Part shown: positions 1 through 24,508 of the stretch, piece after piece
Position numbering within the stretch: position 1 is the stretch's first letter
Layout of the letters: every line of letters starts with the position of its first letter
IMG/VR virus record: IMGVR_UViG_3300031555_002904
DNA: 64,000 nucleotides
Strand: one strand, 5' to 3'
From: a virus
Taxonomy: Duplodnaviria; Heunggongvirae; Uroviricota; Caudoviricetes
Notes under the pieces: model-generated
What the model was told of the DNA's origin: nothing
Seen by the model: only the letters and a program-made list of their open reading frames with translations
Database searches by the model: none
Position numbers and translations under genes: made by a program

Positions 1-558
1 ATTCGGTATTTTGCCGATGGTGGCAATTATGTCATCGACGGTCATCCTACTCTAGTCATCGGCGGAGCTTATTCTGTTGATAAGTATTGGCGGCTCATTC
101 GGGCCGGATACTCTGCGACTGATGGGGCTATTGCAGACCCTAAGAAATGCGGCTGGTTTAAAGATGAGTGTCTAACCCAAGAGGAAATGACTGCCATCCA
201 GGAGAGTAATGTTGGCAAGAAGTTTGACCTTGTGCTCACTCATACCTGTCCCTTTGATTGGGAGCCTACTGACCTCTTTCTTGGTTGCATTGACCAGACT
301 ACTGTAGATACCTCTATGGAATGGTGGATGAACCAGGTTAAGGATACTTTCGATTGGAACGTATGGCTTTTCGGTCATTTCCATGCAGACCGGATTGAGC
401 GGCCTCATGTTCAACAGTTCTATATGGATTATGAAGATTTGGATAGCATCTGGAATCGGTGGAATGACCAGTGTACTTACGCTGACGAGTGGGATTTGGA
501 TAAGAGTCCTTATATGGCTCTGTGGGATATGGAGACTGATTATGGCAAAAAATGCTGA
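1..558 (+). CDS. calcineurin-like metallophosphoesterase, C-terminal part (5' end outside window)
   Basis: Frame 1 is open from base 1; the translation ends ...WLFGHFHADRIE..., a GHxH metallophosphatase motif; stop is TGA at 556-558. Confidence 0.55.
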   Translation: MRYFADGGNYVIDGHPTLVIGGAYSVDKYWRLIRAGYSATDGAIADPKKCGWFKDECLTQEEMTAIQESNVGKKFDLVLTHTCPFDWEPTDLFLGCIDQTTVDTSMEWWMNQVKDTFDWNVWLFGHFHADRIERPHVQQFYMDYEDLDSIWNRWNDQCTYADEWDLDKSPYMALWDMETDYGKKC

Positions 559-754
559 TTTTGTTATTCCATTTCATTTTGTAATGAGAATTAAGGACAT
601 TCCAGAAGATGAATTAGAAGATTATGTAAATGACATTCAAATGGCATTACATGAAATATTCTATTCCAGCGATATAGACGACGACCATTTCGAGGTAAAA
701 ATTTGTGCTCCCGATTACGCAAAAAGTTATAAGGAGTATGTTTATGAGGATTAA
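542..754 (+). CDS. hypothetical small acidic protein
   Basis: ATG at 542 overlaps the upstream stop; 70 aa ORF in the + gene array. Confidence 0.4.
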   Translation: MAKNADFVIPFHFVMRIKDIPEDELEDYVNDIQMALHEIFYSSDIDDDHFEVKICAPDYAKSYKEYVYED

Positions 755-1001
755 AGATTATCTAATTGCCGTGGGAACTGCGGCCGCAGGTGCCTTAGCG
801 ATTACACTTCTTCTTGCTCTTCTGGCATTAATTGGCTGGCCTGTCGTTTGGGTTGTTCTTGTTGTTGTATTCTTACCTAAGACCTACTCTTGGGCAGTTG
901 AATATCGTGAGAACAGAGAACCTAACTATATTGGCTATTTAATTGAAAAAGCCGAAAATGCTTTTAAAGGCAAGTCTAAAGACAGTAAGATTGAATTTTA
1001 A
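744..1001 (+). CDS. small membrane protein
   Basis: AAGGAG at 731-736 then ATG 744; two hydrophobic helices (AITLLLALLALIGWPVVWVVLVVVFL). Confidence 0.5.
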   Translation: MRIKDYLIAVGTAAAGALAITLLLALLALIGWPVVWVVLVVVFLPKTYSWAVEYRENREPNYIGYLIEKAENAFKGKSKDSKIEF

Positions 1002-1004
1002 GTA

Positions 1005-1034
1005 AAGACCCTATGGCAACCATAGGGTCTTTAT
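1005..1034 (+). terminator. rho-independent terminator
   Basis: Hairpin aagaccctatgg/caac/ccatagggtctt followed by a T run. Confidence 0.6.
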
Positions 1035-1062
1035 TGATTTTTTATAAAAAATATGTTATAAT
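1034..1062 (+). promoter_or_regulatory. conserved phage promoter P1 (TTGATT-17-TGTTATAAT)
   Basis: -35 TTGATT 1034-1039, 17 nt A/T spacer, extended -10 TG-n-TATAAT 1057-1062, then ATATATAG; first of about 18 near-identical copies. Confidence 0.7.
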
Positions 1063-1092
1063 ATATATAGAAAGTAAAGAGAGGAGAAAGTT

Positions 1093-1278
1093 ATGAATAA
1101 GTTTTATAGCGAGATTGATAAGGCTCTCCAATCTTACGAGAATTATAAGCCTTACCACACACGCAGTATTGAATGGATTTCCAATCGAATCTCTTGGTGT
1201 TGGAAATGGCGAAAAATCACAAAGGAACAGATGGAAGAACTCTGTGATAGAGTAATCAAAGTTTTAGAAGGGGATTGA
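1093..1278 (+). CDS. hypothetical protein
   Basis: RBS GAGAGGAGAAAG then ATG; 61 aa. Confidence 0.5.
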   Translation: MNKFYSEIDKALQSYENYKPYHTRSIEWISNRISWCWKWRKITKEQMEELCDRVIKVLEGD

Positions 1279-1282
1279 TACT

Positions 1283-1423
1283 ATGATTATTAAGTACATT
1301 TGGTGTACCAGCCGTTATGATAAGCATTATCGCAAGTGGCATGAACGAACCTGGAAGGGATGGTTCTTATTCGGTTTCATTCCTCTGTATGTTACTACTG
1401 TTGAGTATTTAATTAAAGGTTAA
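1283..1423 (+). CDS. hypothetical small protein (46 aa)
   Basis: ATG overlaps the upstream stop; fills the gap before 1437. Confidence 0.3.
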   Translation: MIIKYIWCTSRYDKHYRKWHERTWKGWFLFGFIPLYVTTVEYLIKG

Positions 1424-22222: not shown

Positions 22223-22362
22223 GCTGAACAAGAAACCAAATGTGCGAAGTGCGTCTATGAAGTAGGATGTGCGACGAGGGGTCTTCTAAAAGAGTTTCCC
22301 TGTCCTTCTTACAAAAGAGATGCTCCCGACGGCGGATATTATGGGTGAAAGGAGGAAATGAC

Positions 22363-22632
22363 ATGAGTCACGCAATCCGACACCTAGACTATCACTGTTC
22401 AGTAAGTGAAAAAGCAATTCTGAAAGAATTAAATAGCTTCGCTTATGACCCGCAAGAAACAAGTGGATATCATGGAAACCTAAAGTTCCATAAAGAACCT
22501 GTTTATAAAAACAGAGAAGAAGCCGAAAAAGCCATCGAAAAAATGGATAATGGCTGGTATGATGACCACGCGGTAAGATATCGCGATGGACGAAAAATCT
22601 TTTGGCTTGTGAAAGTGGAGTGGCACTGTTGA
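22363..22632 (+). CDS. hypothetical protein
   Basis: RBS AAAGGAGGAA then ATG 22363. Confidence 0.45.
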   Translation: MSHAIRHLDYHCSVSEKAILKELNSFAYDPQETSGYHGNLKFHKEPVYKNREEAEKAIEKMDNGWYDDHAVRYRDGRKIFWLVKVEWHC

Positions 22633-22811
22633 CAACAAGATGGACAATGCTACCTCATGAAGAAAAGTCAGCTTTAGAAATTTTCAAAAGACTGACTGAA
22701 ATTGATTATGCTTTGAGAGATTACTTTATCTCTTGGGAGCAAACAAAACGGCTCTTACAAGAGCGAGCCGAGTTAATTGATTTACTCAAAAAACTCGGTT
22801 ATGAACCTTGA
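22602..22811 (+). CDS. hypothetical protein
   Basis: 69 aa ORF overlapping the upstream end. Confidence 0.35.
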   Translation: MACESGVALLTTRWTMLPHEEKSALEIFKRLTEIDYALRDYFISWEQTKRLLQERAELIDLLKKLGYEP

Positions 22812-22850
22812 AAAAATATATATTTTAATGAGTAAAAGGAGAAACAACAA

Positions 22851-24359
22851 ATGGAAATTCTTAGTCTGATTGTTCCCGCACTGATTGCTCTGGCAGTCAT
22901 CATCCTGCTTGCTTCTGGTTATACCAAGGCACCCCCTGATATGGCTTATATCATTTCCGGTGTCCGCAAGAAGCCCCGTATCCTGATTGGCCAGGCCGGC
23001 ATCAAGATTCCTTTCTTCGAGCGTCTTGATAAGCTGTCTCTTGGTGCGATTCAGATTGACGTAAAGACCAAGACTGCGGTTCCTACCGCCGAGTATATCA
23101 ACGTCCGTGTTGACTCTACTGTTGCTGTTCGTGTTGGCCGTTCCGATGAAATGATTGCTCTTGCCGCTCAGAACTTCCTGAACATCAATCGAGATACCAT
23201 TGGTGCCAAGATTAATGACCTTCTGGAAGGTAATGTGCGTGAAATCGTTGGTCAGATGAAGCTGACTGAAATGGTTTCTGACCGTAAGGCATTCTCTGAT
23301 AAGGTTCAGGCAAACGTCGTTCCTGACCTGGCTAAGTTCGGTCTGGAACTGGTATCCTTCAATGTTCAGAACTTCTCCGACGAGGGTGGCGTAATTGACA
23401 ACCTTGGTATCGACAACGTCGAGCAGATTCGTAAGGGCGCTGCCATTGCGAAGTCCAATGCTCAGCGTGAAATCGCCGTTGCCGAGGCTGAGAACGACAA
23501 GGCAGCTAACGACGCAAAGGTCAAGGCTGCTACCGAGATTGCTAAGAAGCAGACCGAGTTCGCTGTTGAAAAGGCAGCCATGCAGGAGCAGGCTGACACC
23601 GCTCAGGCAAAGGCTGACGCTGCTAAGGCTATCGAGGCCGAGCACCAGCGTAAGGAACACGAAATCGCTGTGGCAAACGCAAACCTGGCTCGTCAGGAGA
23701 AGGAAATCGAGCTGAAGGAGCGCGAGGTTGCTATCACCGAGCGTAAGCTGGAAGCTGAGATTAAGAAGAAGGCTGACGCTGACAAGTACGCTGCACAGCA
23801 GGTTGCTGATGCTAAGGCATACGCCGCTCAGAAGGCTGCGGAAGCTGACCTGTATGAGCGTGAGAAGCTGGCTGAAGCTGCTCGTATCGAGGCTGAAAAG
23901 AAGGCTGCGGCTGACCTGGCTCTGGCTACTGCTGAGGCAGAAGCTAAGAAGGCACTGGCTGCCGCTATCAAGGCACAGGGTGAAGCAGAAGCTGCTGCTG
24001 AACAGGCAAAGGGTCTGGCAGAAGCAGAGGCTATCCGTGCTAAGGCTGAGGCTGAAGCAAAGGGTATGCTGGAGAAGGCTGAAGCTCTGAAGCAGTACGG
24101 CGACGCCGCTAAGCAGCAGATGGAACTGGATGCAGTTAAGGTGCTGTATGAGCAGCTGCCTGCAATTGCCGAAGCTATCGGTAAGGGTTACGCCGGTGCT
24201 GACATCCACCTGATTGGTAACGATTCCGGTCAGCTGGCTGGCAACATGATGGGTAACATGACCCAGATTATCGAAGGCTTCAAGGGCGCAACTGGTGTAG
24301 ACCCCATGTCTGTCATCAGTGGTATGATTGGCGCCAAGATTGCCGACAACAACAGCTAA
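22851..24359 (+). CDS. flotillin-like SPFH/band-7 protein (YqiK/FloT-like)
   Basis: N-terminal transmembrane helix, SPFH domain, about 200 aa Ala/Glu/Lys coiled coil, C-terminal flotillin-type tail. Confidence 0.75.
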   Translation: MEILSLIVPALIALAVIILLASGYTKAPPDMAYIISGVRKKPRILIGQAGIKIPFFERLDKLSLGAIQIDVKTKTAVPTAEYINVRVDSTVAVRVGRSDEMIALAAQNFLNINRDTIGAKINDLLEGNVREIVGQMKLTEMVSDRKAFSDKVQANVVPDLAKFGLELVSFNVQNFSDEGGVIDNLGIDNVEQIRKGAAIAKSNAQREIAVAEAENDKAANDAKVKAATEIAKKQTEFAVEKAAMQEQADTAQAKADAAKAIEAEHQRKEHEIAVANANLARQEKEIELKEREVAITERKLEAEIKKKADADKYAAQQVADAKAYAAQKAAEADLYEREKLAEAARIEAEKKAAADLALATAEAEAKKALAAAIKAQGEAEAAAEQAKGLAEAEAIRAKAEAEAKGMLEKAEALKQYGDAAKQQMELDAVKVLYEQLPAIAEAIGKGYAGADIHLIGNDSGQLAGNMMGNMTQIIEGFKGATGVDPMSVISGMIGAKIADNNS

Positions 24360-24376
24360 TAAGTGAATAAATTCTA

Positions 24377-24406
24377 GCCCCAGGAAGAAATTCCTGGGGC
24401 TATTTG
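24377..24406 (+). terminator. rho-independent terminator
   Basis: gccccaggaa/gaaa/ttcctggggc then TATTT. Confidence 0.65.
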
Positions 24407-24479
24407 TCGTGGTTCTCGTTCGGCTCCGAGTTTGGAATTCCGACCGCCTATACAAATTTTTTCTCCAAAATGCCACTAA

Positions 24480-24508
24480 TTGACTTTTCCATATTTTTTG
24501 GGTATAAT
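24480..24508 (+). promoter_or_regulatory. promoter (TTGACT-17-TATAAT variant)
   Basis: TTGACT 24480-24485, TATAAT 24503-24508, RBS AAGGAGGAG downstream. Confidence 0.55.

Follow-up and report, generated by a model that had tools for sequence, protein, structure and literature searches.

Organization of the locus

The stretch of phage DNA examined here, IMG/VR record IMGVR_UViG_3300031555_002904, spans 64,000 nt (hereafter the window; left and right denote its flanks) and is divided near 24.4 kb into a first part (1-24359), the genes of which are almost wholly devoid of the codon TAG, and a second part in which TAG serves as a sense codon for glutamine in some genes and is absent from others. 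The plus strand carries all credible genes of the window, and no tRNA gene was found within it. Our curated map comprises 89 genes, 47 in the second part and 42 (of at least 40 amino acids) in the first, which the first-pass annotation of this DNA had credited with about 50.

Pfam matches in the first part (hereafter the early block; Table 1) include phosphoesterases, a Thg1-like protein, a sigma-70 family factor, a T7 gp5.9-like protein, an RNase T-like exonuclease, an RNA ligase, a protein with the shoulder domain of major vault protein (MVP), an NAD+ salvage set (isochorismatase, phosphoribosyltransferases, a NAMPT-like protein, NAD synthase and an NMNAT-like protein), Sir2, NADAR, a kinase and flotillin. 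Judged by these domain names, the block reads like an island of counter-defence and takeover functions. The second part is a replication and nucleotide-metabolism module, after which the coding strand flips just beyond the window. Across the boundary GC content falls from ~0.45 to ~0.38, and the terminator and promoter that had been claimed to mark it are both present.

In both codon usage and promoter class the early block is distinct. Its GC content at third codon positions (GC3) is 0.46, compared with 0.30-0.33 in the rest of the window, CAG makes up 75% of CAG plus CAA, and its density of off-frame TAG is half that of the second part; flotillin is the GC-richest gene of the window and has the strongest codon bias. 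Ribosome-binding sites are AGGAGG-like, and the promoters are of the type TTGAyT-17-TGnTATAAT, a search for which returned 15 matches against 3.7 expected. Eight near-identical copies occur in the early block, most of them directly behind a terminator hairpin; of the 48 positions of their consensus, seven copies match 40-45 and the eighth matches 31, whereas promoters after 24.4 kb are of the same general type, with diverged spacers, and match 24-36. Left of the window, the adjoining 8.5 kb contain three more such promoters. Sigma-70-type promoters with an extended -10 element thus occur in both halves.

TAG as a glutamine codon

In this genome TAG is a sense codon for glutamine, as in genetic code 15, and in the window it is almost never a terminator: TAA or TGA closes 88 of the 89 curated genes, the sole exception being the open reading frame (ORF) that begins at 21635, considered below. 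Coding coverage is 0.928 under code 15, 0.898 under code 11 and 0.882 under code 4. When TAG is translated, Pfam matches run across it in PhoH, dihydrofolate reductase (DHFR), DHH/RecJ, guanylate kinase, RuvC and GIY-YIG, and PDB alignments of PhoH, DHFR, guanylate kinase and the GIY-YIG domain are continuous over the TAGs. The amino acid inserted was not identified by the PDB alignments of DHFR, guanylate kinase and GIY-YIG, in which the positions concerned are variable. In PhoH, the TAG corresponds to the Q of GDITQVDL (the GDxxQ motif) in PDB 3b85, and Q occupies this position in all seven relatives aligned. Across the 56 related loci described below, TAGs of relatives stand opposite a glutamine of the window in 36 of 135 cases, an 8.9-fold enrichment (the next residue, Lys, is enriched 1.7-fold), and TAGs of the window face Q in 54 of 113 alignment cells of relatives.

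Partition of TAG in the window

The partition is real. Leaving aside the codon at 22220, the 7,759 codons of the early block contain 177 CAG, 58 CAA and no in-frame TAG, whereas the 12,604 codons of the second part contain 179 CAG, 212 CAA and 27 TAG, the last confined to 12 genes (Table 1). In the second part TAG amounts to 6.5% of glutamine codons overall and to 25% within TAG-bearing genes. The earlier estimate of about 27 TAGs after 24.5 kb therefore stands; the accompanying claim, that none precedes 24.4 kb, holds for the 235 glutamine codons counted over the 42 genes and fails at ORF 21635, which carries TAG 22220. For about 22 of the 27, a supporting domain or orthologue alignment crosses the codon, and for the other five (44002, 50893, 61268, 63339 and 63456) the evidence is continuity of the ORF. 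A further TAG, at 60879, was left out of the count, as it lies upstream of a better-supported start at 60891.

A codon-level Fisher test gives p = 5e-6 (0 TAG per 235 glutamine codons against 27 per 418), or p = 7e-5 with 22220 taken as sense, and the gene-level test gives p = 2.7e-4. When gene order is permuted, a TAG-free run of this length arises anywhere with p = 0.003-0.004; a codon-weighted version of the run test is weak (p = 0.035). A Fisher comparison of large TAG-free genes with the rest of the second part was not relied on, being circular in that the former group is defined by lacking TAG. Chance is thus an unlikely source of the partition in the window.

Within the second part the distribution is a mosaic, much as first described. 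The gene immediately past the boundary already has a TAG, aligned with Q in four relatives, and the GIY-YIG gene has nine; gyrB, gyrA, ligA, dnaE and nrdD, interspersed among the TAG-bearing genes, have none, and the same is true of dnaB and primase. The TAG-bearing genes of the window are accessories of replication and nucleotide metabolism rather than late genes. A dependence of TAG density on distance from the early-type promoters, which the first-pass annotation had raised, is not apparent in the window. Composition provides no ready account of these contrasts: the TAG-free core replication genes have a GC3 (0.33) close to that of the TAG-bearing genes (0.31), so that avoidance of TAG is no mere by-product of GC3, and it is the early block that is richest in CAG codons, the mutational precursors of TAG.

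Conservation among related loci

At least 168 stretches in IMG/VR, on contigs of up to ~200 kb, match the flotillin gene. From these, 80 flotillin-centred loci were fetched and dereplicated to 56, genes were called with TAG open, and orthologues were assigned by BLASTP, TAG and glutamine codons being counted over the BLASTP-aligned regions (L numbers below are labels of fetched related or overlapping loci). Orthologues of early-block genes together contain 15 TAGs, eight of them in a single linker of the Metallophos_2 phosphoesterase, beside 3,093 glutamine codons; flotillin alone contributes 1 TAG and 1,502 glutamine codons. Core replication genes are similarly bare, with 0 TAG to 472 glutamine codons in gyrB, 0 to 410 in gyrA and 1 to 103 in RNase H. 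The corresponding figures are 45 to 446 for PhoH, 46 to 234 for the multi-domain lysin, 14 to 211 for orthologues of the gene at 24541 and 10 to 54 for those of the gene at 29082, and TAG constitutes 9-16% of glutamine codons in the PhoH and lysin genes of relatives. Counted over whole genes, the TAG share of glutamine-type codons is 1.0% for early-block genes, 0.4% for core replication genes, 12% for other second-part genes and 7% for unassigned ones. A contrast based on position only is weaker (1.04 against 2.37 TAG per 1,000 codons), because relatives carry TAG-rich ORFs of low GC inserted among their early genes.

The early block and its gene order are common to relatives whose PhoH proteins are only 48-67% identical, and GC3 of the block exceeds that of the second part in 36 of 36 related loci, by a mean of 0.115. 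That the same genes are free of TAG across 56 diverged relatives argues that its absence is maintained by selection. Exclusion of TAG is gene-specific and conserved, the codon being selectively kept out where a stop would be harmful.

A recurrent TAG in the linker of an early phosphoesterase

The single in-frame TAG of the early block lies in the Metallophos_2 ORF at 21635. Beyond it the frame stays open for 41 codons, to a TGA that is followed by an AAGGAGG site and the ATG of the next gene. The tail so encoded is rich in cysteine (CxxC...C...C..YKRD.PDGGYYG) and homologous to the C-terminus of the uninterrupted orthologue in L008 (51% identity, E = 3e-12). It contains no in-frame ATG, GTG or TTG, and can therefore be made only by reading through the TAG. 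In comparisons with eight relatives, the proportion of synonymous differences in the tail (pS) is 0.73-0.97, a range in which the synonymous rate dS could not be computed for seven of the eight pairs, and the nonsynonymous proportion (pN) is 0.27-0.47; synonymous differences being so high at this pN, the tail has been kept as protein.

Forty-seven orthologues fall into short forms, which stop exactly at the equivalent of 22220, and long forms, which carry the linker and tail. Some long forms have no TAG (L030, L071, L072, L074 and L098); in others every TAG is in the linker, one each in the window, L031, L032, L053 and L095 and three in L048. In L092 a TAG lies inside a divergent cysteine-rich tail, and in none of the 47 is one found in the catalytic domain. 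Linker TAGs are distributed over at least four divergent groups (the window with L029, L031 and L032; L048; L053; L095), which, judging by this divergence, would have acquired them independently. Because many orthologues end exactly there, a stop in the linker leaves a complete enzyme, and the clustering of early-block TAGs in this one linker fits the prediction that early genes must be decodable with TAG as a stop. The pattern would imply that the linker TAG acts as a stop at least part of the time on early-block messages and, in view of the conserved tail, that it is also decoded there.

These features suggest, tentatively and at rather less than even odds, that TAG 22220 and its counterparts form a switch by which the code change selects between two forms of the protein. 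With TAG as a stop, the product would be a phosphoesterase of 195 amino acids, the length of the many orthologues that end there; with TAG decoded, the same mRNA would yield a protein of 237 amino acids with the conserved cysteine-rich, zinc-ribbon-like tail. Our literature searches did not turn up a recurrent linker TAG giving first a short and then a long protein, and this is possibly the only new detail of the system.

Genomic setting and additional features

Megablast of 24 kb against INPHARED found no DNA-level relatives among cultured phages; an exact 40-mer had no match in IMG/VR, nor did a second one, chosen from the left flank, in the JGI metagenome collection. The primase matches only Firmicutes phages of Herelleviridae type, the nearest cultured relatives, at ~36% identity. 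The AGGAGG sites, the extended -10 promoters and these nearest cultured phages point to a Firmicutes host, and the DNA is probably that of a large uncultured phage distantly related to SPO1. At least 22 metagenome contigs, of which some measure 0.2-1 Mb, carry this sequence at 99.96-100% identity. At the junction near 24.4 kb, three contigs agree at 100% identity and two others at 99.96-99.99%, the samples being four from JGI and the European Nucleotide Archive (ENA); since the junction recurs in these samples and the gene order is kept in relatives, it is not an artefact of assembly. JGI and ENA contigs of 130-177 kb run far to the right of the window, and 8.5 kb were recovered to its left, from which the genome must be at least ~200 kb in size. 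The left 8.5 kb are likewise almost free of TAG, and in the right flank (10 kb) minus-strand genes of ~1,175 and ~808 codons carry five and three TAGs, respectively. The standard-code gene calls of JGI fragment PhoH, the guanylate or dNMP kinase and these large minus-strand genes, so that annotation of such genomes needs code 15.

Table 1. Features of the window, all on the plus strand, with the positions of in-frame TAG codons
Feature	Position	TAG	Remarks
Early block, TAG-depleted	1-24359	22220 only	42 genes, 235 Gln codons
First of eight early-block promoters	1034-1064		TTGATTTTTATAAAAAAATATGnTATAATATATAT
Other seven early-block promoters (starts)	3620, 4843, 8525, 11143, 14569, 18736, 20625		
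Thg1-like protein	2408-3214		RNA repair
Sigma-70 family protein	3695-4597		Sigma70 domains r2, r3, r4
T7 gp5.9-like protein	4599-4832		
RNA ligase	6427-7845		RNA repair
838-aa protein	8588-11104		Major-vault-protein shoulder and Vault_3 domains
NAD+ salvage genes	11197-11787, 11998-12825, 14879-16354, 16863-17669, 18198-18725, 19127-19690		
Sir2	13366-14139		
NADAR	17682-18197		
Kinase and phosphoesterases	19908-22348		RNA repair
Metallophos_2 phosphoesterase ORF	21635-22348	22220-22222	TGA 22346-22348
Flotillin	22851-24359		502 aa; Band_7
Terminator hairpin closing early block	24375-24402		12-bp stem, 7 GC pairs
Sigma-70-type promoter	24480-24508		TTGACT-17-TATAAT; 11 of 12 consensus positions
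142-aa gene	24541-24969	24841	Q in L006, L008, L011, L014; H in L010; R in L012
Small membrane protein	25013-25267	25163	TAG conserved in L006; alignment runs past it
PIN-PhoH ATPase	25257-26501	26358	Pfam PhoH, residues 217-411 (25251-26501 model), crosses TAG
Multi-domain lysin	26577-28910	none	777 aa; M15 peptidase, lysozyme, amidase, SH3
Core stretch	29961-38130	none	Pfam; the four genes that follow
gyrB	29961-31856	none	
RNase H	32656-33132	none	
gyrA	33441-35816	none	
NAD-dependent ligase (ligA)	36139-38130	none	
GIY-YIG protein	38825-39817	nine	2 CAG, 8 CAA
Dihydrofolate reductase	41000-41497	41195	Pfam DHFR_1, residues 1-163, crosses TAG
CxxC-motif protein, phrog_4680	43969-44628	44002	TAG is codon 12; behind promoter 43906
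DnaB-like helicase	44632-46173	none	Family match
Primase	46552-47655	none	Family match
RecJ-like DHH exonuclease	48034-49770	48172, 48247	DHH, residues 68-212, includes second TAG
Gene without family match	50725-51219	50893	ORF continuity
DnaE	52790-56752	none	Pfam
Guanylate or dNMP kinase	56960-57529	57017, 57083, 57137, 57392	Pfam Guanylate_kin, residues 3-176, spans all four; lies between DnaE and NrdD
NrdD	57615-59822	none	Pfam
Small ORF	61160-61414	61268	Start and stop overlap neighbours as in translational coupling; no homology support
RuvC-like resolvase	62198-62683	62219, 62390, 62570	Pfam RuvC, residues 4-76, spans two
Gene	63300-63899	63339, 63456	ORF continuity

The product of the GIY-YIG gene has a hydrophobic N-terminus, a middle segment rich in Glu, Gln and Lys, and a C-terminal GIY-YIG domain (residues 242-322) that holds two of the nine TAGs. 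The gene at 43969 has an upstream ribosome-binding site and a CPYCK-TAG motif after its start; its PHROG match covers residues 56-210 only, which makes TAG 44002 less certain. The lysin sits among replication genes, and in relatives ~16% of its glutamine codons are TAG. In two relatives (L011, 10543-13506; L013, 7726-10694) a GIY-YIG ORF divides gyrB, which is intact in the window, into two parts, as a homing endonuclease, intron-borne or free-standing, might do. The adjacent small genes 60891-61160 and 61160-61414 have near-identical ends (..EVEVIK and ..KVEVIK) and may be a local duplication. In the early block, a YqeY/GatB-like protein (12844-13362) scores exactly at the Pfam cut-off; its domain could relate to the handling of tRNA-Gln, and the gene was considered as a code-change factor and rejected, because relatives without sense TAG have it too.

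At least five contigs from different samples (L019, L020, L021, L026 and L027) start at one point within a DUF2828 gene, ~5.5 kb left of the window start, and only L018 runs further left, into an EcoRI-type methylase and a GmrSD/HNH pair (L018 484-2894) that look like a strain-variable insertion breaking assemblies. The nearest database representative of the methylase is on a 3.9-kb contig, and in relatives the methylase sits within large tRNA arrays. Next to it in L018 (77-162, ~8.4 kb left of the window start) ARAGORN predicts an 86-nt tRNA-Cys(GCA) whose D stem has 3 bp and whose variable arm is long, an unusual shape for tRNA-Cys.

Proposed conditional decoding and its alternatives

The distribution of TAG is most readily reconciled, with a probability that we put at about 0.6, with temporal or conditional decoding, under which early genes and the core replisome are kept free of TAG because they are needed before, or without, a decoder. 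TAG would be a conditional stop in the infected cell, at which release factor RF1 of the host terminates translation until, or unless, a phage decoder competes; this decoder would presumably be a suppressor tRNA(CUA) from another part of the genome. Genes whose full-length products are required before or independently of the decoder would then be purged of TAG by purifying selection, as predicted for the promoter-dense early block and the core replisome (gyrase, ligase, helicase, primase, DnaE and NrdD), and accessory replication genes, the GIY-YIG nuclease and the downstream minus-strand genes would be free to use it. On this reading the exclusion would reflect timing. The presumed takeover island, with its NAD+ salvage, RNA repair, gp5.9-like and sigma functions, is in keeping with the notion of genes having to act ahead of any change of code, and the TAGs that persist in early genes are those at which termination would do no harm. 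The family-wide counts turn what was an impression from one genome into evidence of selection, gene by gene and independent of GC3.

Several observations weigh against this view. No tRNA(CUA), RF2 or other release factor, or aminoacyl-tRNA synthetase was found in the window and flanks (~82 kb in total, well under half of a genome of at least 200 kb) or in ~160 related or adjacent loci, and no CUA anticodon occurs in the large tRNA arrays around methylase-anchored loci of relatives; for comparison, phage suppressor tRNAs were detected in only 40% of TAG-recoded genomes (Borges et al., bioRxiv 10.1101/2021.08.26.457843). Nor is the early block wholly free of TAG, and the tail after 22220 itself implies decoding on early-block mRNA. 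Inside the early block of relatives, the inserted ORFs mentioned above (GC 0.25-0.33, ~230-310 codons, endonuclease-like) are rich in TAG, one of them, in L050, being a GIY-YIG endonuclease with eight. Two small ORFs to the left of the window may also hold an in-frame TAG (L018 4469-4699, TAG 4583; 7754-8179, TAG 7802); the second has a good ribosome-binding site and its putative TAG within a cysteine-rich N-terminus, and neither has homologues among the fetched loci. Some relatives (L030/L008, L010, L033, L036, L038 and others) show no sense TAG in 21 kb, and no TAG stops there either; they may be recoded elsewhere in their genomes, or may be in a TAG-depleted state that precedes recoding, such as has been proposed as a step towards it (Borges et al., bioRxiv 10.1101/2021.08.26.457843). 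Finally, the TAG genes at 24541 and 43969, the latter with its TAG at codon 12, are each the first behind a sigma-70-type promoter, and if promoter type reports timing, then these genes are early too. As such promoters drive TAG-bearing genes as well, promoter type does not cleanly separate the two sets. The first-pass proposal, of early genes readable by the host code and other genes gated on a suppressor, is in this respect only partly borne out: the reading of TAG as glutamine and the selective maintenance of its absence support it, and promoter class does not.

The most serious competitor, which we nevertheless think rather unlikely, is a cost of expression: a suppressor would always be present, RF1 would always compete, and each TAG would cut the yield of full-length product, so that TAG would be lost from genes that are very long or strongly expressed (the early block, flotillin, gyrase, DnaE), while low-abundance accessories and selfish endonucleases tolerate it. 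The strong and conserved codon bias of the early block (72-75% CAG, with GC3 elevated in every locus compared) would fit translational selection; the longest genes of the second part are the TAG-free ones; TAG-bearing and TAG-free genes share a general promoter type; and the linker TAGs are explained equally well, since partial termination there costs nothing. Less easily accommodated are the many short early genes with weak coding scores under the codon model, which also lack TAG, and the lysin, a long protein whose orthologues are nonetheless TAG-rich. Overall, a cost of expression fits the data about as well as strict temporal gating, and the two cannot be separated on sequence alone.

An explanation by ancestry or composition, in which a GC-richer block came, for example, from a standard-code donor and has not yet accumulated CAG-to-TAG changes, with no part for selection, seems to us improbable. 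It would account for the difference in GC and in GC3 (0.46 against ~0.32), the halved density of off-frame TAG, the wealth of accessory genes with bacterial-type domains, and the frequency with which contigs break in or beside the block. Against it, a block shared in content and order among relatives with PhoH proteins so diverged must be old in the lineage, and the 177 CAG codons in the window and 2,365 across relatives have given rise to TAG almost only in one linker. The block also shuns TAG as a stop, which would not be expected of DNA newly acquired from a donor with the standard code, and the core replication genes are TAG-free despite their phage-like low GC3. That a rare codon has clustered by chance, or that gene calling or assembly has produced the pattern, is scarcely credible: only 12-13 of the 89 genes carry TAG, a single gene accounts for nine of the 27 TAGs and the codon-weighted run test is weak, yet the Fisher and gene-order tests, the repetition of the pattern in 56 dereplicated loci and the identity of the junction across samples all oppose it.

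Comparison with known systems

The takeover module of SPO1 and other Herelleviridae is organized in short operons with strong host sigma-A promoters, mostly with terminators, and many small genes, and SPO1 uses the standard code. The early block resembles this module in its array of promoters with terminators, its many small genes and a phage sigma factor able to redirect later transcription; it differs in gene content (NAD+ salvage, RNA repair, MVP, flotillin), and protein identity, seen in the primase, is only ~36%. For the linker TAG the nearest parallel is the A1 read-through protein of Q-beta, an extension made by programmed read-through of a stop codon. In both, a stop at the end of a complete domain precedes a conserved in-frame extension made only by read-through; here, read-through would need a genome-wide change of code rather than a local leaky context, and the two products are predictions.

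A model in which early genes are expressed with host machinery before a switch of code has already been published (Borges et al., bioRxiv 10.1101/2021.08.26.457843; Yutin et al., PMC7886860). As in the code-15 gut phages described in those studies, TAG encodes glutamine in only a fraction of genes; recoding is variable or absent in the replication machinery, where Borges et al. found use of the alternative code to be variable (bioRxiv 10.1101/2021.08.26.457843), and the code differs between close relatives. The same authors reported in Agate phages a homing endonuclease inside an early gene and loaded with the recoded stop (bioRxiv 10.1101/2021.08.26.457843), which is paralleled here by the nine-TAG GIY-YIG gene and by the TAG-rich endonuclease-like ORFs of relatives. 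The present lineage differs in being of Firmicutes type, at least 200 kb in size and equipped with an SPO1-like early module, neither crAss nor Lak; in that no suppressor tRNA was located in the window, flanks and ~160 loci; and in that TAG already occurs in accessories of replication and nucleotide metabolism, not only in structural and lysis genes, while the multi-domain lysin of this genome has none. Phage genomes in blocks of different codes are those for which Mgcod was built (bioRxiv 10.1101/2022.06.29.495998). The window is like them in having a standard-code-compatible block abut a TAG-reassigned one with a sharp switch at an operon boundary, and unlike them in that the recoded block is not uniform, being instead a mosaic of TAG-bearing and strictly TAG-free genes. 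The locus is a clear further example of a layout already described rather than a new phenomenon, and constitutes a well-resolved case, drawn from a large family, of recoded phages that keep part of the genome readable by the code of the host.

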